Source: a virus
DNA: 64,000 nt
Virus record (IMG/VR): IMGVR_UViG_3300045747_000653
Span: 8,434 to 72,433 of that record
Direction: 5' to 3' (one strand)
Under the pieces are notes generated by a model. The model had not been told where the DNA came from and did not search any database. It saw only the letters and a list, made by a program, of their open reading frames with translations. Position numbers and translations under genes: made by a program. Every line of letters starts with the position of its first letter. Within the stretch, counting starts at the first letter, position 1. Positions 8,421-38,003 of the stretch are shown piece after piece.

Positions 8421-8456
8421 TGGAGCCTCTTGTGGGGGCGTGGGTTAGCGGAGCGA

Positions 8457-31201: not shown

Positions 31202-32573
31202 GGAGGCACCCCCGTCCGGCCGATGCCTCGAAGGCGTCGCCGCCGATGTCGGAGCCGATGGCCCGGCGGCCAAGGCGAGCCGCCGCGAGGAGAAACGTCC
31301 CAGTCCCGGCGAAGGGGTCGATCACGAGGTCGCCGGCCTTGCTCGCGTGGCGCACGAACCGTTCGGCGAGGGCGTCGGGCTTCTGCCAGGCGTGGTAGCG
31401 GTCTCCCTGCCGACCGTCTGGAGCGTTGATGTCCTGTACCGAGAACTGCTCGACCATCAGCGGGGAGTCGAGGGCTGGGGCCTTGGGTCCGCGCAGGTAG
31501 AGGATCGCCTGCCAGTTGAGCTTGTAGTCGAGCGTCGGGCTCGGCCCGATCGTGTTGCGGTAGGTCCAGACCAACACCTGGGCCAACGTGAATCCACCCG
31601 GCGGGCTCGCGAGTGCCGACAGGTAGGCGTGCAACTCGCGCGGATAGGCGCCGATGCAGATGAACGCGCGGCCGGTGGCCTTCAGCCGAGAGATAGCCAG
31701 CGGCGCCCACTCCACAGCGAACGTGGCGATGTCCTCCACGTCGGTGGAGTAGGGCGGGTCGGTGAGCAGCAGGTCTGCGCCGGCACCGGGCAGAGCCTTC
31801 AAGAAAGAGATCGCGTCCTGCTGCCGGATGGTGGCCCGCTCCGGAGCCTGGGCGGCCTGGGCGGCGACCTTGGCCTGGGTCTCGGCTGTCTTGATCTGGG
31901 CGAGGGCCTTGTTGCCGGTGAGGCGCTGGGGCTCTCCGGCCTTCGCCTCCGACTTCATCCTCTCGACCAGGTCGGGCGCCTTGCGCTCCAGCTCCATCGC
32001 CCGCTCTACCGTCGCACGCGAGGTCCCGGCGGCGGCGGCGAGGCGGGTGGCGGCCTTGCGGGCGGCCTCGGCGGCGTGGTCGCGGGCGGGAGAAGCTGGC
32101 GCAGGACGAGGAGACGGTGCCGCCTCACGTGAGGCGGGACTGTTCTTCGCGGCGGCGGCTGCCGGAGCCTTCTTCGCCGCGTTCTGGTTGCCCTTCGCCT
32201 TCTCCCCCCTCGCCCGATTCGCCTCCTCCTTCGCCTTAGCCTGCGCTGCGACATAGGCGTCCGAGCCCTCGATCAGCTTCTTCGACACGAGCACCCGGAG
32301 GATCGCGTCCTCCATCTGGCGGCGCTTGAGGTTCAGAGAGAGGACGAAGAGGTACGGATCTGAGCCGTCGTGCTGCTCGAATCGCGGCGCGACGCCAGCG
32401 GCGAGGCACGCGAGGAGACGGTTGCGCCCATCGAGGATCCGACCCTCAAAGAGTACGATGGCCACCCGCAGGCCGTTCGCCTTGATGTCCTCCGTGAGGC
32501 CGGCCAGCTCGGTCGCCGTGAGCATCGGCACCTCGTCCGCCGCCGGGTGCGTCTCGTAGTTGCCGATCTTCAT
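31191..32573 (-). CDS. ParB/Srx N-terminal domain fused to a beta-class DNA methyltransferase
   Basis: HPAADEVP...ILDGRNRL (ParB-like); LLLTDPPY then VIDPFAGTGT. Confidence 0.88.
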   Translation of the reverse strand: MKIGNYETHPAADEVPMLTATELAGLTEDIKANGLRVAIVLFEGRILDGRNRLLACLAAGVAPRFEQHDGSDPYLFVLSLNLKRRQMEDAILRVLVSKKLIEGSDAYVAAQAKAKEEANRARGEKAKGNQNAAKKAPAAAAAKNSPASREAAPSPRPAPASPARDHAAEAARKAATRLAAAAGTSRATVERAMELERKAPDLVERMKSEAKAGEPQRLTGNKALAQIKTAETQAKVAAQAAQAPERATIRQQDAISFLKALPGAGADLLLTDPPYSTDVEDIATFAVEWAPLAISRLKATGRAFICIGAYPRELHAYLSALASPPGGFTLAQVLVWTYRNTIGPSPTLDYKLNWQAILYLRGPKAPALDSPLMVEQFSVQDINAPDGRQGDRYHAWQKPDALAERFVRHASKAGDLVIDPFAGTGTFLLAAARLGRRAIGSDIGGDAFEASAGRGCLHAA

Positions 32574-32986
32574 GTCGCCTGCCTCCCCAGCACCACCCGC
32601 AGCGTCTCCTCGCCGGACTGCCCGTGGCGCGCCCTCACGGCCTCGACGAGCCGCGAGAACCGCTCGCCGGATGTCTCGCTCGCGAGTCGCTTGGGAGGCG
32701 TGAACTCAGCCAGCCGGCAGAAGGTCTGGACCATCCGCTCGGAGGGCTGCATCCGCGCGAGCGCGAGCGCCATGGCGAGCGTCGGCTCCCGGCCGTTGTT
32801 GCCAGAGAGCCGGTTCGCGAGCGTGGTCCGGTCCATCGTGTGGAGCCGGTAGAGCAGCTCCTTGTGGCCGACTTCGTCAGCCGCCCGCCTCACGGCGTCG
32901 TAGAGCTCGCCGACATCGGCGGTCCACAGAGCGTGCTCATTTGGTTGCTCGCCGTTTCGTGCCTGGTCCATGCACCCTCCGGTCAT
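32570..32986 (-). CDS. CII-like regulatory protein
   Basis: Position after cro; helix-turn-helix-like KELLYRLHTMDRTTLANRLS. Confidence 0.5.
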   Translation of the reverse strand: MTGGCMDQARNGEQPNEHALWTADVGELYDAVRRAADEVGHKELLYRLHTMDRTTLANRLSGNNGREPTLAMALALARMQPSERMVQTFCRLAEFTPPKRLASETSGERFSRLVEAVRARHGQSGEETLRVVLGRQAT

Positions 32987-32996
32987 GGAGCAGCAG

Positions 32997-33233
32997 CTAC
33001 GCGGCGCGGCGGGAACGGCGGGGGCGGGGAGGCTTGCTCAGCAACTCCTCGAGAGTCATCTCGACGCCGAGCCGCTTCAGGGCGGAGAGGATCGCGGCGG
33101 CGGTCTTGCTGCCCGGATAGCGTCCGCCCGTCCGGTACCCGTGGATCTGTGTGCGAGCACAGCTACAGAGCGCCGCGAACTCCGCGTCGGAGAGCCGAAG
33201 GCGGGCCCGCAGGACTTCGTGGAGGGTCGACAT
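32997..33233 (-). CDS. Cro-like HTH regulator
   Basis: LSDAEFAALCSCARTQIHGYRTGGRYPG XRE-type HTH, divergent from cI. Confidence 0.8.
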   Translation of the reverse strand: MSTLHEVLRARLRLSDAEFAALCSCARTQIHGYRTGGRYPGSKTAAAILSALKRLGVEMTLEELLSKPPRPRRSRRAA

Positions 33234-33239
33234 GAAAGC

Positions 33240-33268
33240 GTTGTACCGAAAACGGCACAGCCGGTCAA
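33240..33268 (-). promoter_or_regulatory. PR-like promoter TTGACC-N17-TACAAC with overlapping 18-bp operator (33242-33259)
   Basis: Read directly; near-palindrome TGTACCGAAAACGGCACA; matches the promoter at 37975-38003 at 23/29 positions. Confidence 0.75.
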
Positions 33269-33299
33269 GTTCGTTGTTCCGTTCCGACTATTCAGCGCT

Positions 33300-33317: not shown

Positions 33318-33326
33318 GTGAGAACC

Positions 33327-33875
33327 GTGCCGAAGAAAACGGACAAGCCGAAGACGTGGGCTCGTGTCGTTCGCGAGTTGACCGGACTCACGCAGGAGCG
33401 GTTTGCCGAGAAGGTGGGAGCCGGCAGACCACAGGTGGGGAAGTGGGAGACCCAAGGGGCTAGCCCGTCCTTCAAGCACTCACAGCAGATCCGGCGGGTC
33501 TTCCCCTCAGAGGCGGCACAGGCAGACAAGCTGTGGCCAACGCCATCTGCCGCCTCTGGCGTCACCATCACGTACGCAGCCACGCCCACCGCCGAGCAGT
33601 CCCCCGCCGCCAACTCCGCCGTCAGTCTGACTGCCTCCGCGCAACCGTCCGCGAGCACGGAGATGTCGGCCCAGGCTGGTAGATCGGTCCCAGATGACGC
33701 GGGAGGGTTGATGGACGAGTCGGAGCGACACCTGTTGGCGATCTGGCGGAGCCTGCCGGGCCCCCAGCAGGAGAAGATGATGCGCGCGAGCCTGGGCTTC
33801 TTGACCGAGGCGCGCTCCGTGGACCCTCACGAGCCGGGCGTGGCACAACCGCCGCTCCACGCCCGGATGAAGTGA
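33327..33875 (+). CDS. CI-like repressor (XRE HTH)
   Basis: LTQERFAEKVGAGRPQVGKWETQGASP HTH; divergent from cro; no evident S24 peptidase domain. Confidence 0.8.
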   Translation: MPKKTDKPKTWARVVRELTGLTQERFAEKVGAGRPQVGKWETQGASPSFKHSQQIRRVFPSEAAQADKLWPTPSAASGVTITYAATPTAEQSPAANSAVSLTASAQPSASTEMSAQAGRSVPDDAGGLMDESERHLLAIWRSLPGPQQEKMMRASLGFLTEARSVDPHEPGVAQPPLHARMK

Positions 33876-34006
33876 CGCGGCACGAGTTCGTCGACCCCGA
33901 CCAACCGATCATGCTGAGCAGGGACGGCGTGGCGGAGGCGAAGCGGCTCGAGCAGCTCAAGCTCCCGCTGGCCGACGTGATCCCGATCAAGAAGCCGGTG
34001 GGGTAG
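33872..34006 (+). CDS. Small ORF coupled to cI (44 aa)
   Basis: GTG overlaps the cI stop; VTRHEFVDPDQPIML... Confidence 0.3.
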   Translation: MTRHEFVDPDQPIMLSRDGVAEAKRLEQLKLPLADVIPIKKPVG

Positions 34007-34173
34007 GCGCAGAAGCAGGTGCAGGGCTTGATGCTGAGGTAGGAACCACTGAAGTCGAGAGGGAGCGCAGAACCAAGGAAGATCCGCAGGGCTTCGGACG
34101 TTCAGTTGACGTGACATCAGACAAGTGGAAAGTGTTCGCTTCGGTCGCTACTCTCTTGGAGGGGCTACGGGGG

Positions 34174-34548
34174 ATGCTTCGAGCCATGAAGGCGGACCGA
34201 GATGGCCTACCAAGGGTGGCGCGAAAGGGGAACGCTCTCGGCGTTCGTGTCCCTGTTGACGTACACCTCGAGGGCGAGGATGTCCTTCCCGGCGAAGGGA
34301 TGTCTGTGACCGTCGGACGGATTGAGGACCTGCCACCACACCAACTGCCGGTAAGCCGAGGCGGCGACAACGATTGGGGGGTCGTCTTCGAGCACACCGC
34401 TCGCCTCCCGCAGGATCTCGTGATGGAGCACAGGCCTCTTCCGGCCTCTGCTACTCACTATCAGGTTGAGCCGGCAACCAGGATGCCGCTCGCCGCGTAT
34501 GAAGAGGCGCTCGGCAGCACCCGACCTAACTGGAGGAAGATCGCATGA
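34174..34548 (+). CDS. Putative ADP-ribosyltransferase toxin (Tse2-like ART pattern)
   Basis: RBS GGAGGGG before ATG 34174; R(AMK)...LGVR...GMSV...HYQVEP..MPLAAY..L.ST..W pattern recognised by eye. Confidence 0.6.
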   Translation: MLRAMKADRDGLPRVARKGNALGVRVPVDVHLEGEDVLPGEGMSVTVGRIEDLPPHQLPVSRGGDNDWGVVFEHTARLPQDLVMEHRPLPASATHYQVEPATRMPLAAYEEALGSTRPNWRKIA

Positions 34549-34895
34549 GCGTCGCAGCATACATGAAGCTCAGGTCGGAGATGGCTCAGGTCCGATCTCG
34601 CGAGGACGATGGCGACGACGAAGCTCGTCTCGTTGGCGAGATGGATGATGTCTGGTGGAATTTAACCTCCAAGGAGCAAGCTACCGTTCGAGCGGCAATC
34701 CTTGCCGAACGCAGAGCCCAGATGGTAGTTCCGAGCGTCCAAGTCGACTTGATGTTCGTCGTGTTTGGTAAGGTGATGGCCATCAAGCCCTCCTCCACAG
34801 TACCCGTCCCCGTGCGTGAGGTTTCCGACTTGCTCGCGTTTGGCACCGTCGCGTCGGTTCATGGACGATCGCTATTGGCCACGGCATCGGCATGA
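34545..34895 (+). CDS. Putative antitoxin: acidic helical N-terminus plus hydrophobic C-terminal extension
   Basis: ATGA overlap with the toxin gene; EMDDVWWNLTSKEQ helix followed by VQVDLMFVVFGKVMAI. Confidence 0.55.
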   Translation: MSVAAYMKLRSEMAQVRSREDDGDDEARLVGEMDDVWWNLTSKEQATVRAAILAERRAQMVVPSVQVDLMFVVFGKVMAIKPSSTVPVPVREVSDLLAFGTVASVHGRSLLATASA

Positions 34896-35344
34896 GGTCG
34901 CCCAACGCTGCATCGATCAGCGCCCTGATTTGCGAGGACGTCAGAGTCGAGGCCAGTCGACGAATCAGCCTTATGGGCATCTATGGCCCGCACATCGACA
35001 TCGAGGTGCAGCCGCCGATTATGCTGCTTCAATTGTGCGCCGTGCTCCTTATCGCAAATCCAGCTGAGATCCTTTCGTCGGTTGCGATGACGGTCGTTCA
35101 GCCGTCCGGCGAACTGCTCGGTCCTCCTCTGACGCAACTACTCGAGAAGCCGCTTGATGAGGCCTCGTTCTCGCACCAGTTGATGGTCAAGCTGGGTCCC
35201 TTCCCGATCCCAGCTGTCGGTGAGTTCAAATTCAGATTTATCTTTAATGGAGATGAAGAACTCGGCGTCGAGATTCCGATGACCGTTCGCTATAAGCCAG
35301 CGGAGCCGAAGAGTCTGGCTGCGCTGGCCCCCATTTCGGCGTAG
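34892..35344 (+). CDS. DUF6941-like beta-sandwich protein
   Basis: ALICEDVRVEASRRISLMGIY...GEFKFRFIFNG; ATGA overlap with the previous gene. Confidence 0.6.
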   Translation: MRSPNAASISALICEDVRVEASRRISLMGIYGPHIDIEVQPPIMLLQLCAVLLIANPAEILSSVAMTVVQPSGELLGPPLTQLLEKPLDEASFSHQLMVKLGPFPIPAVGEFKFRFIFNGDEELGVEIPMTVRYKPAEPKSLAALAPISA

Positions 35345-35491
35345 GCTCCGCCGCCTTCTCTCTCTTAGGCAACCCAACCTCTGCAAGCACACGCGAGCCT
35401 GAGCTTCAAGCGCCTCCCATCGAACTCTCGCTGGAGGCTTCGCCTCCGCACCACAGGGTCCCGTGCTGGAACGCCCAGCTACGTAACCACC

Positions 35492-36436
35492 TCACTCGAG
35501 CAGCTCGGGTCTCGCCTCGGTGTTCGGCTGAACTGAAAAGTGCTCGTCGGTCTCGTTGTCGGCTGCCTCTATGGCGAGGACTGCCTTCTGGACGAGACCA
35601 GCGACACGATCGTCCTCCGAACAGGCATCCGATACCAAACGCGGCCACCAGTGCTCCAGGGAGATCACGGCCAACTCCAGGCAGGCAGCGACAGCTCGAA
35701 CCTCTGCCGCCTGGCAGCCTAGCGCGCCGCCTCCCTTGCGACCAAGGTACCGGTTCCCGCGCTTCTGTTCGAGCCGCGCCCAACCTGCGATGGCCGAATA
35801 GACTTCGAGCTCCTCGTTGCTCACTGCGCCGCCCAGGGAGCGGCGTTCGCGAGCCAGCGCTGCGCGTTCTACGTTGGAGGCCTGGGCCCAATCTCGCCAA
35901 GCGCAGACGAACGAAGACATCGCGACTCGTCGCTGACGCATAGCAAGTTTGGCATCCTCTTTTCGGTCAGCCTCGGGTCGCTCAGACTCAAGCCTGACAA
36001 AGAACGGATAGGCAAAGGAACGTACGGTGGCCGCCACAACCTCCTTCGTCGTGAGAAAGAGACCAGGGTCGGTCACGACAACTTCGCCAAGTGACTCAAC
36101 AGAACCGACCTTGCGAAACCACACCCTGTAGAGCTTTTGTGGCGGGCCCCTGATGGACTGCCTGGCGAATGTCCCTCGAGGTGGGTCCTGTTCTTCAGGC
36201 TCCACCGCCACGCCGGCAGGCTCAACCGTAAACACGCCTTTTGCTGCCGTCTTGGCCACAAGAGTGTCGACGCAAGCCGGATCGCACTCGGCGGGGGCGT
36301 TGACGACGGGTGGAGCCAGATAGCGAGGACCAGGCCGAGCCAAACCTTGTACGATGGCAGACTCGACCTTGATGCCAAGCCCAACGACAGGTACCGGGGC
36401 GACGGTTGCCGCGACTAAGAGAAGAGTTCCAAGCAC
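35492..36436 (-). CDS. Exported hypothetical protein
   Basis: N-terminal hydrophobic signal-like MLGTLLLVAATVA; composition looks less GC-rich than the core genes. Confidence 0.55.
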   Translation of the reverse strand: MLGTLLLVAATVAPVPVVGLGIKVESAIVQGLARPGPRYLAPPVVNAPAECDPACVDTLVAKTAAKGVFTVEPAGVAVEPEEQDPPRGTFARQSIRGPPQKLYRVWFRKVGSVESLGEVVVTDPGLFLTTKEVVAATVRSFAYPFFVRLESERPEADRKEDAKLAMRQRRVAMSSFVCAWRDWAQASNVERAALARERRSLGGAVSNEELEVYSAIAGWARLEQKRGNRYLGRKGGGALGCQAAEVRAVAACLELAVISLEHWWPRLVSDACSEDDRVAGLVQKAVLAIEAADNETDEHFSVQPNTEARPELLE

Positions 36437-36501
36437 GGTCGAATCCTCCTGGCGCAGTTGCCAAAGATCACGAACTGCCAGAGCTTGCTCTGCATGGTGG
36501 C

Positions 36502-36849
36502 CTACGGTCTGTTGCCGACGCGACCGGCGAACTGGTCCATCTGGGCCACCATCACGGCGGTGAAGGGGATGAGCCCGAGAGCGATGGCTGCAGCGATGGC
36601 ACGCAAGATCCTGCCACCGGCGGGCTTCCCGCTCATCTCCGAGAAGTCACGCAGCGCGTCGGTCGCGCCCCGGTAGATCATGTAGACAGCGATCAAGTAC
36701 GCAACCCACTGGATCATTCCGATCATTTTCCACCCCTGTCCCCGGAGGCCGCTCAAGTGCGCCGCGGTCGCAATCATTTCTGGTGCTTGGAAGAGCTCAA
36801 CGAACATCTCCATCGTGAACGACAGGAGAGATCGAGCAACGACACCCAA
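36502..36849 (-). CDS. Small two-TM membrane protein (true start probably downstream of 36849)
   Basis: Two hydrophobic segments: MIGMIQWVAYLIAVYMIY and IAAAIALGLIPFTAVMVA. Confidence 0.45.
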   Translation of the reverse strand: MGVVARSLLSFTMEMFVELFQAPEMIATAAHLSGLRGQGWKMIGMIQWVAYLIAVYMIYRGATDALRDFSEMSGKPAGGRILRAIAAAIALGLIPFTAVMVAQMDQFAGRVGNRP

Positions 36850-37891
36850 ACTCCGATGTGCACTTATGGTAGGGCAATTCTGGGGCGCTGCCGACAGAGA
36901 ACCTGCGCCCCATCAGTCGCCGGCACGACTCGCAGGCCCGCTCTCCGTCAACCATGACCTCGACATAGCGGTAGTCTCGGCGAATCCAGCCGAGCCGCTG
37001 AACGTGCCTCCCGAATTGGGAGAACATCCTCACCGCCACATCGTTGTCGAATCCTGTGCTGTTCTTGAATCCAGGCGGAAGCCACGACGAGGCATCTGGC
37101 GTTCCCGAAAGAAGCTGCATCCCTCCTGCGACTCGCAGCTCCTCTGTCTCGGCCGGCGTCGCTGACCCGAGGATCTTCGGCGCGCCGGCGAAAATCGCCT
37201 CGAGCGCCGGCCGCACCCCGGCCGGGTCGTCGCTGGCCGACCAGTCGATCCCCATCCCTCGCTGGAAGATCTGCCCCGCCTCGAACGCCACCCAGGTCCG
37301 AGTAGCCTCTTCGAGGCGCCGATGCCGTAGGTGGTCCAGGGTCTCGGCCTCTGCGCGCGACCTCCGCTGCGCCTCGACGTCAAGGAAAGCCGTCGCGAGA
37401 GCCCGACCTTCGACGGACAGAACCACGACCTGGCCGTCGGCCGCGATGCGGCGCATCTCGTCGGGTGCAGCCTCCATCAATCTCTGAACGAGCACAGGCT
37501 TCGTGCCCGAGACCTTGAGGCCGCGGTTTTTCGCCATTGCCTTGAGCGCAGCCTGGGAGTGAAGGATCAGGAGCGCATCCTCCGTGGATGCGAGAGCAAG
37601 GAGGCCATCGGCGAGGAGGGCGCCGATCGCCGACGGCATCGTCTCGCCCAGAAGATCGGTCCAGTACGGCGCATTCGGCTCGGCGGCCGGCCTCGGCTTG
37701 CGGAACTTCGAGAGCAGCAAGAGGTGATGTCTCGACGATCGACGATCGGCGATGGGTGTCGCCAGCCTCACAGGTGGCAGTGGATCGACGCCCCGTGCCC
37801 GCTCCAACGCCGGCTCCGGCGCGGCTGAAGGCGGCGGCGACGCTGCTCGCCTGGGCTGCAGCCACGAGACGAGCTTGTCGACGATCCCCAT
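36797..37891 (-). CDS. SAP-domain protein with C-terminal Cys cluster
   Basis: AALKAMAKNRGLKVSGTKPVLVQRL SAP motif; CESC...PELPYHKC...GCRC. Confidence 0.75.
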   Translation of the reverse strand: MGIVDKLVSWLQPRRAASPPPSAAPEPALERARGVDPLPPVRLATPIADRRSSRHHLLLLSKFRKPRPAAEPNAPYWTDLLGETMPSAIGALLADGLLALASTEDALLILHSQAALKAMAKNRGLKVSGTKPVLVQRLMEAAPDEMRRIAADGQVVVLSVEGRALATAFLDVEAQRRSRAEAETLDHLRHRRLEEATRTWVAFEAGQIFQRGMGIDWSASDDPAGVRPALEAIFAGAPKILGSATPAETEELRVAGGMQLLSGTPDASSWLPPGFKNSTGFDNDVAVRMFSQFGRHVQRLGWIRRDYRYVEVMVDGERACESCRRLMGRRFSVGSAPELPYHKCTSEFGCRCSISPVVHDGDVR

Positions 37892-37950
37892 TCCGCCTCC
37901 CCTATGGCCACCCTCGCCGACCCCGCGAAAAAGATCAAACGGAATAGCGA

Positions 37951-38003
37951 CGTACCGAAATCAGCACAATCGACTTGACGGATTGTCTCGTATTCGGTAC
38001 AAC
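37951..38003 (+). promoter_or_regulatory. PL-like promoter TTGACG-N17-TACAAC with two 18-bp operators (37951-37968, 37984-38001)
   Basis: Each site matches the 33242-33259 operator at 15/18 positions; lies upstream of the early operon. Confidence 0.75.

Follow-up and report, generated by a model that had tools for sequence, protein, structure and literature searches.

Three overlapping genes carried by a temperate phage from a wetland metagenome are proposed to encode a tripartite toxin-antitoxin system with a partner other than SecB, and no curated defense model matches this cassette. The window analyzed, that is, the whole 64,000-nucleotide stretch at positions 8,434 to 72,433 of the IMG/VR record IMGVR_UViG_3300045747_000653, makes up the greater part of a viral record of 77.6 kb (70% GC, about 90% complete), and the identical sequence is present in wetland and pond metagenome runs. 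The genes were first picked out in a reading made from the letters of the window only (the sequence-only reading), where they were taken for a new defense module of a toxin, a tailed antitoxin and a third gene. The module is indeed undescribed, but calling it new understated the case, as the cassette looks like one variant of a widespread and undescribed modular family of toxin, antitoxin and partner. A three-part system is the best explanation because the pair of toxin and antitoxin head is constant, the third gene is coupled to it and the type of the antitoxin tail matches the type of the partner. The whole scheme, including a role of the cassette in the defense of the lysogen, is given a probability of about 0.5. 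Its parts are graded separately: the toxin-antitoxin core formed by genes 1 and 2 is quite probably right, and the odds are near even for gene 3 acting as the partner and, likewise, for the role in defense.

All three genes lie on the plus strand, gene 1 at 34174-34548 (124 aa), gene 2 at 34545-34895 (116 aa) and gene 3 at 34892-35344 (150 aa). The ATGA overlaps joining these co-directional open reading frames (ORFs) had been noted at 34545-34548 and 34892-34895, and were found at exactly these positions. The low GC content of the second codon positions in these frames indicates that the three ORFs are coding. On inspection of the sequence, a Shine-Dalgarno-like GGAGGGG stands upstream of gene 1 (34158-34164, plus strand), with its GGAGG 11 nt 5′ of the ATG at 34174, and gene 2 has a strong ribosome-binding site, GGAGGAAG, placed within the 3′ end of gene 1 (34532-34539, plus strand) and 5 nt 5′ of the start. 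The homology of the gene 1 relatives begins at residue 22 of a longer 145-aa ORF with a GTG start, which corresponds to the ATG at 34174; the later ATG at 34186 is excluded by Arg3, which is nearly invariant, and the GTG at 34111 is a less probable start. Consensus scans detected neither a promoter nor a terminator in the gap between the repressor operon and gene 1. The weak terminator-like hairpin that such a scan placed over the gene 3 stop codon (35337-35353, plus strand) is weak evidence, since the regional count of these sites is not above that of shuffled sequence.

Gene 1 is predicted to encode a small, Tse2-like enzyme that has the ADP-ribosyltransferase fold and retains an intact Arg-Ser-(His)-Glu site. 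The AlphaFold2 (AF2) model built on the family alignment reached a predicted local distance difference test (pLDDT) value of 96, and its sole meaningful Foldseek match in the PDB was Tse2 (5AKO, probability 0.96). Tse2 was also the top match in VIA-align (Z 9.4, root-mean-square deviation of 2.5 Å over 103 residues, 21% identity). The next 40 or so VIA-align matches were mostly proteins of the ADP-ribosyltransferase fold, such as KptA/Tpt1, TreTu, TreX, diphtheria toxin, heat-labile enterotoxin (LT), DarT, ParT, MbcT and exotoxin A. The neighbors of gene 1 in AlphaFold DB are, by their annotation, Tse2-domain proteins and C-termini of RHS toxins. The model and these comparisons agree with the Tse2-like fold proposed in the sequence-only reading. 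A PDB profile search with the gene 1 family gave chance matches only, Tse2 being found by structure alone. Against the Pfam family ADPRTs_Tse2 (PF18648), the window protein scored 25.0 bits (cut-off 26.6, E 3e-5), with only profile positions 84-126 aligned; the family was matched by 38 of 59 aligned relatives, the best at E 8e-11.

An exhaustive search for gene 1 yielded at least 360 representative relatives (clusters), 23 of them at E 1e-10 or better. Word-index searches with genes 1 and 3 returned only the window's own protein, and no relatives were found in viral contigs (genes 1 and 3) or in GenBank phages and PLSDB plasmids (gene 1). Most of the gene 1 relatives are stand-alone proteins of 120-140 aa, and some form the final 120 residues of proteins of 431-877 aa with RHS/YD-shell repeats, a placement that marks the domain as a toxin. 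Five positions are strongly conserved among 151 family sequences, namely R3 (126/127), G42 (151/151), S44 (149/151), H95 (148/150) and E99 (127/150), and the window protein carries all of them. The R...GMS...HxxxEP pattern noticed at the outset is consequently real and conserved across the family. R3, G-M-S44 and H95-x-x-x-E99 are located on or beside the predicted strands 2-5, 43-46 and 95-100; as read from the alignment, these residues appear as an Arg-Ser-Glu type pattern, and may come together in a single pocket.

Gene 2 consists of two contrasting parts. Residues 1-56 (34545-34712, plus strand), presumed to be the toxin-neutralizing part, are predicted to be helical and contain 12 acidic and 8 basic residues, with a grand average of hydropathy (GRAVY) of -0.59. 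Residues 57-116 (34713-34895, plus strand) form a hydrophobic, poorly conserved tail with a GRAVY of +0.79 and 42% V/I/L/F/M, proposed here as the docking or addiction element for gene 3. An acidic helical N-terminus followed by a hydrophobic tail of about 60 aa had been described from the sequence, and the composition bears this out, the helix being a prediction. The tail was also considered as a membrane anchor; this was rejected, as its hydrophobic stretches are too short and are broken by Lys or Pro. The N-domain carries the motif E..L.EMD..WW.LT..EQ, in which W37 is invariant and E26 and D34 are conserved at 90% or more. No match to gene 2 was obtained in Pfam, PDB sequences, NCBIfam, PADLOC or PHROGs, and each of its 47 detectable relatives is labeled as hypothetical.

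Gene 3 encodes a DUF6941-like beta sandwich of the immunoglobulin (Ig)/macroglobulin (MG) type. It scored 25.9 bits against Pfam DUF6941 (PF22091; cut-off 27, E 1.4e-5), and the match is nearly full-length, covering residues 11-132 of the protein and positions 3-124 of the 125 in the profile. The public gene call is 123 aa long, 27 codons short of the form used here; the 150-aa form is supported by this DUF6941 match and by the homologue at locus L002, which is conserved from the first codon. In the ESM Atlas, 96 of the 100 nearest clusters are DUF6941, with a template modeling (TM) score of 0.70 to a DUF6941 cluster, and the structural neighbors are DUF6941 and macroglobulin-type domains. The AF2 model, built with DUF6941 sequences, is all-beta (pLDDT 74), and its best PDB matches are Ig/MG/filamin/RhoGDI-like (Z up to 7.8). 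A SecB identity was considered and rejected, with no SecB match in Pfam and no SecB among the structure matches in the PDB. Pfam, the ESM Atlas, the AF2 model and the PDB matches agree in this way with the initial view of gene 3 as an Ig-like, non-SecB sandwich of the DUF6941 type. DUF6941 was also tried as a dedicated third component of such systems and rejected, since only 1 of 28 Myxococcota DUF6941 loci lies next to a toxin gene. A literature search found no paper mentioning DUF6941.

The recurrence of the cassette was analyzed in metagenome contigs, in 19 of 401 Myxococcota genomes and in contigs with gene 2 relatives, including one from an Acidobacteriota genome. For the Myxococcota, one relative led to four genomes, and these were then the center of phylum-wide searches; the metagenome scan added one locus only. 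In all but one of 25 distinct intact loci, the start of a gene with the gene 2 N-domain lies at or close to the stop codon of the toxin gene, in most cases overlapping it by 4 nt, and these 24 loci continue with a third coupled gene or with a domain fused to the N-domain. The third gene is translationally coupled in nearly every locus, with offsets from -10 to +9 nt. The architecture of toxin, tailed small protein and third gene is thus present in many unrelated genomes. Of the recurrence anticipated for the triad, the three-gene architecture stood; the DUF6941-like third gene is a minority variant, and most relatives use instead an unrelated protein with the signature "MYxTAH".

The third genes fall into classes, and the gene 2 tail differs from class to class in sequence and length. 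This correspondence, seen in a small sample of loci, argues for an interaction between tail and partner analogous to chaperone addiction. Class A, the commonest (16 loci), has as third gene the "MYxTAH" family of 130-270 aa, for which no known relatives were found; PDB profile searches with gene 2 and with the class A third-gene families gave chance matches only. The class A tails of gene 2 are short and end in [PST]-R-[RKQEL], which reads P-R-x-(x)-A-A in 13 of these 16 loci, and we presume, speculatively, that these A-A endings resemble C-terminal protease tags. Class B, with a DUF6941-like third gene, comprises the window, L002 and L023, in which gene 2 has 108-137 aa and a long hydrophobic tail. 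Genes 1, 2 and 3 of L002 are 55, 38 and 59% identical to those of the window, and the third gene of L023, from a myxobacterium, matches DUF6941 at E 1.9e-4; L004 is a possible fourth member, as a candidate only. In class C, the third gene encodes a helical protein of about 190 aa, whose versions from a myxobacterium and an acidobacterium share 52% identity, and the gene 2 tails carry EGPRCWP...Y.GFVS. Moreover, two Myxococcota genomes (G133 and G179) have, directly 3′ of a Tse2-like toxin gene, the gene 2 N-domain fused in one case to a 326-aa TPR-like protein (L034) and in the other to a helicase of the SNF2 family longer than 496 aa (L035). In the toxin tree, the window and L002 form a pair (94% support), and class B is split between two positions within the class A loci, on a weakly supported backbone. 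Two class C loci have the toxin gene frameshifted over two frames (L074:3560-4005 and L075:841-1286) and genes 2 and 3 intact, which looks like a decayed toxin with its neutralizers retained.

The genomic neighborhoods of the relatives were varied. One relative is located in a clear defense island, between genes for an AAA_15/AAA_21 ATPase, an MmeI-type restriction-modification enzyme and an SNF2 protein, and others lie near mobile-element or toxin-antitoxin genes. Chromosomal copies are also found as small low-GC islands amid ordinary genes. For example, the class B triad L078:7564-8873 (minus strand), on a myxobacterial chromosome of 76% GC, has a GC content at third codon positions (GC3) of 0.66-0.78 compared with 0.95-0.99 in its neighbors, and on this contrast it looks recently acquired there too. 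A general association with defense islands was tried as an explanation and is unsupported, with one clear island and two examined chromosomal neighborhoods that are ordinary. In a Polyangiaceae genome, where an MmeI-type restriction-modification gene and an SNF2 gene adjoin the triad, a gene for a 626-aa AAA_15/AAA_21 ATPase (L005:3094-4974; also in L006-L008 and L011) stands upstream of the toxin gene in the same orientation, with 26 nt between them. It may be a fourth gene of the operon or a defense gene that happens to be its neighbor.

According to the scheme favored here, the three genes would form a toxin/antitoxin/partner cassette held as an accessory block in the phage immunity region. 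Gene 2 would neutralize gene 1 by direct binding through its conserved acidic N-domain, and its exchangeable hydrophobic tail would make the antitoxin depend on gene 3 for solubility or protease protection, with the gene 3 sandwich holding or shielding the tail. If gene 3 were removed, occupied or no longer made, gene 2 would be destabilized and the toxin freed. The likeliest trigger would be a protein of an incoming phage, and the freed toxin would then arrest the infected lysogen. A broader proposal is more tentative, and somewhat doubtful: that chaperone addiction is not confined to SecB-type systems but is a general design, in which a constant warhead of Tse2-like toxin and hairpin antitoxin would be combined with an exchangeable antitoxin tail leading into at least three unrelated guardian or sensor proteins, or with fused TPR or SNF2 domains, the phage DUF6941 version giving lysogens abortive-infection immunity.

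Several observations weigh against this scheme. The Pfam scores of the window's genes 1 and 3 are slightly under the curated cut-offs, and gene 3, modeled with moderate confidence, has generic PDB matches that all stay below Z 8. P0002 (L002:189-554), at 55% identity the nearest relative of gene 1, has HWEVGP in place of the window's HYQVEP, so that Gly replaces Glu99, and 15% of the family likewise lack this residue. Genes 2 and 3 are intact beside P0002, which is without the presumed catalytic Glu; from these sequences, either Glu99 may be dispensable or some gene 1 copies may be inactive. Most type II antitoxins carry a DNA-binding domain, and none is recognizable in gene 2. DUF6941 genes mostly stand alone, that single Myxococcota locus being the only one of the 28 with a toxin or antitoxin alongside, and therefore the fold by itself carries no defense signal. 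Finally, chromosomal relatives often lie outside recognizable defense islands, the two ordinary neighborhoods included.

The alternative that best survives the comparison, although it is unlikely, is a plain two-gene toxin-antitoxin or toxin-immunity pair, with gene 3 as a separate passenger of the operon and the tail serving in oligomerization or membrane association. Only the toxin and the gene 2 N-domain are conserved family-wide, the third genes come from unrelated families, DUF6941 genes are usually solitary and L030 has an unrelated gene downstream, all of which suits such a pair. A passenger gene fits less well with the translational coupling seen in nearly every locus, with the tail motifs that track the third-gene class (across phyla for class C) and with the two loci where a large domain is joined to the gene 2 domain and takes the place of a separate third gene.

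Less probable still is that the same mechanism serves the maintenance of the prophage or island by post-segregational killing and not anti-phage defense. Small, lone, low-GC islands among ordinary genes are typical of addiction modules, and no known defense model was matched, yet the relative in the clear defense island points the other way, and the variable partners and the SNF2 and TPR fusions fit the sensing of an invader better than plain addiction. The position on the phage also speaks for defense, since the repressor operon of a temperate phage, with the post-cI slot that rexAB occupies in lambda, is a classic place for lysogen-expressed exclusion genes. The least likely is an interbacterial effector-immunity cassette like Tse2-Tsi2 of Pseudomonas aeruginosa, with gene 1 exported (e.g., as type VI cargo), gene 2 as immunity protein and gene 3 as export adaptor: Tse2, the founding member of the fold, is a type VI effector neutralized by the acidic helical immunity protein Tsi2 (PMC6099711), and the same domain terminates RHS/YD-repeat polymorphic toxins, but no type VI, PAAR, VgrG or RHS genes were found in the surveyed neighborhoods of stand-alone triads, the RHS-linked toxins precede different small genes unmatched by the gene 2 profile, this family profile found no Tsi2 chain among the PDB sequences, and the carrier is a temperate phage.

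The scheme of toxin, antitoxin and partner was also compared with known systems. No PADLOC model matched any triad protein or its relatives, at E values up to 1. The PADLOC library should include the PD-T4 systems, and on that assumption the cassette has no homology to CmdT, CmdA or CmdC of CmdTAC (PD-T4-9). The absence of both SecB and PADLOC matches for the three proteins makes the cassette an analog, and not a member, of CmdTAC and the other toxin-antitoxin-chaperone (TAC) systems, to whose proteins its own three are unrelated. It shares with them the order of three coupled genes, toxin, antitoxin and partner, and an ADP-ribosyltransferase fold is common to CmdT and gene 1. The antitoxin CmdA begins with two helices and continues in a long, unstructured C-terminal part, and the chaperone CmdC shields it from ClpP (PMC11618068); gene 2 similarly joins a short helical N-terminal part to a long C-terminal extension. 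The HigBAC chaperone doubles as the sensor of a phage protein, and TAC systems are built of modular parts that can be recombined (bioRxiv 10.1101/2024.02.24.581848). Modular parts are likewise found here, and the third protein may be a stabilizer or a sensor. The difference lies in this third protein, an Ig-like beta sandwich in the cassette and a SecB-like tetramer in TAC systems, and the addiction of the tail to gene 3 would be the corresponding feature of this cassette.

In the comparison with Tse2-Tsi2, Tse2 is the best structural match of gene 1 and belongs to the same Pfam family at the family level. Neutralization by a small acidic helical protein is established for Tsi2 and would apply by analogy to gene 2. 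The cassette differs in having a third gene and a clearly conserved Arg-Ser-Glu pattern. DarTG, ParST and MbcTA/Xre-RES likewise combine a small cytoplasmic toxin of this broad fold with a neutralizer encoded next to it, and their toxins are among the weaker structural matches of gene 1 (Z 2.7-3.8); these belong to different subfamilies and are two-gene systems with macrodomain or Xre-type antitoxins. A literature search found no paper on Tse2-like toxin-antitoxin systems or on triads of this type.

The triad is located in the immunity region of the phage. A cI-like helix-turn-helix (HTH) repressor gene with a GTG start at 33318 or 33327 (33318-33875, plus strand; HTH_3, E 7.5e-6) shows weak RstR and repressor matches and has no S24 peptidase domain. 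It is divergent from a cro-like HTH gene (32997-33233, minus strand; HTH_31 and HTH_3 matches, phrog_8) and from a cII-like gene (32570-32986, minus strand). The placement of the triad beyond a cI-like gene, with cro- and cII-like genes on the opposite side, was upheld. The statement that it lies just downstream of cI held for its direction and its position 3′ of the repressor gene, but not for strict adjacency, as a 44-aa ORF and a 167-nt gap intervene. This ORF (33872-34006, plus strand) is coupled to the repressor gene by a GTGA overlap and has no family match; its codon usage is that of the phage core (GC3 0.98), unlike that of the triad, and on this ground the ORF is probably a genuine small member of the repressor operon. 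The ORF and the gap also separate the cassette from the arrangement of lambda rexAB, with which it shares a location within the immunity region, 3′ of the repressor gene and in the same orientation. Protection of the lysogen by aborted infection would be expected here as with rexAB. No sequence or fold relationship exists between the two, and the proposed toxin is an enzyme whereas that system involves an ion channel.

The triad is compositionally foreign in the phage. Its GC content is 57-63% compared with about 70% in the phage core, and its GC3 is about 0.67 compared with about 0.9; the lower GC remarked on in the sequence-only reading was in this way confirmed by the composition profile and by codon-position GC. 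The triad and the three minus-strand genes that follow it (GC 56-66%, GC3 0.65-0.79) make up a low-GC accessory island in the immunity region (34007-37900). Two of these genes, at 35492-36436 (314 aa) and 36502-36849 (115 aa), converge on the triad; neither matches a family in Pfam, PADLOC or PHROGs, and both are candidates for further accessory or exclusion genes. The third (36797-37891) encodes a 364-aa protein with an SAP DNA-binding motif (E 2e-7) and a Cys/His-rich C-terminus of weak resemblance to a Mu F/head-maturation motif (E 0.03), and reads toward the triad from an operator-like site at about 37.95 kb. Additionally, related repeats of about 40 nt with the core GTACCGAAAnCnGCACA, partly inverted, were observed at 33237-33277 and 37946-38003, at both ends of the immunity region. 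Judged by sequence, these repeats resemble shared operator sites that enclose the repressor operon together with the triad and the three converging genes. Elsewhere in the phage, the portal protein has its nearest phage relative, at 30% identity, in an uncultured virus.

If the scheme is correct, a new three-component architecture would be added to the known types of toxin-antitoxin systems, and stand-alone Tse2-like toxins would have their first biological setting. It would also provide the first functional lead for DUF6941 and for two unnamed protein families. The cassette is small, with three genes in 1.2 kb, and its constant head and variable partner make it a source of natural chimeras for the study of trigger specificity. 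The wider modular family is a more interesting result than the phage copy alone: an antitoxin tail that can be swapped among unrelated partners would bear on how defense systems evolve new triggers.

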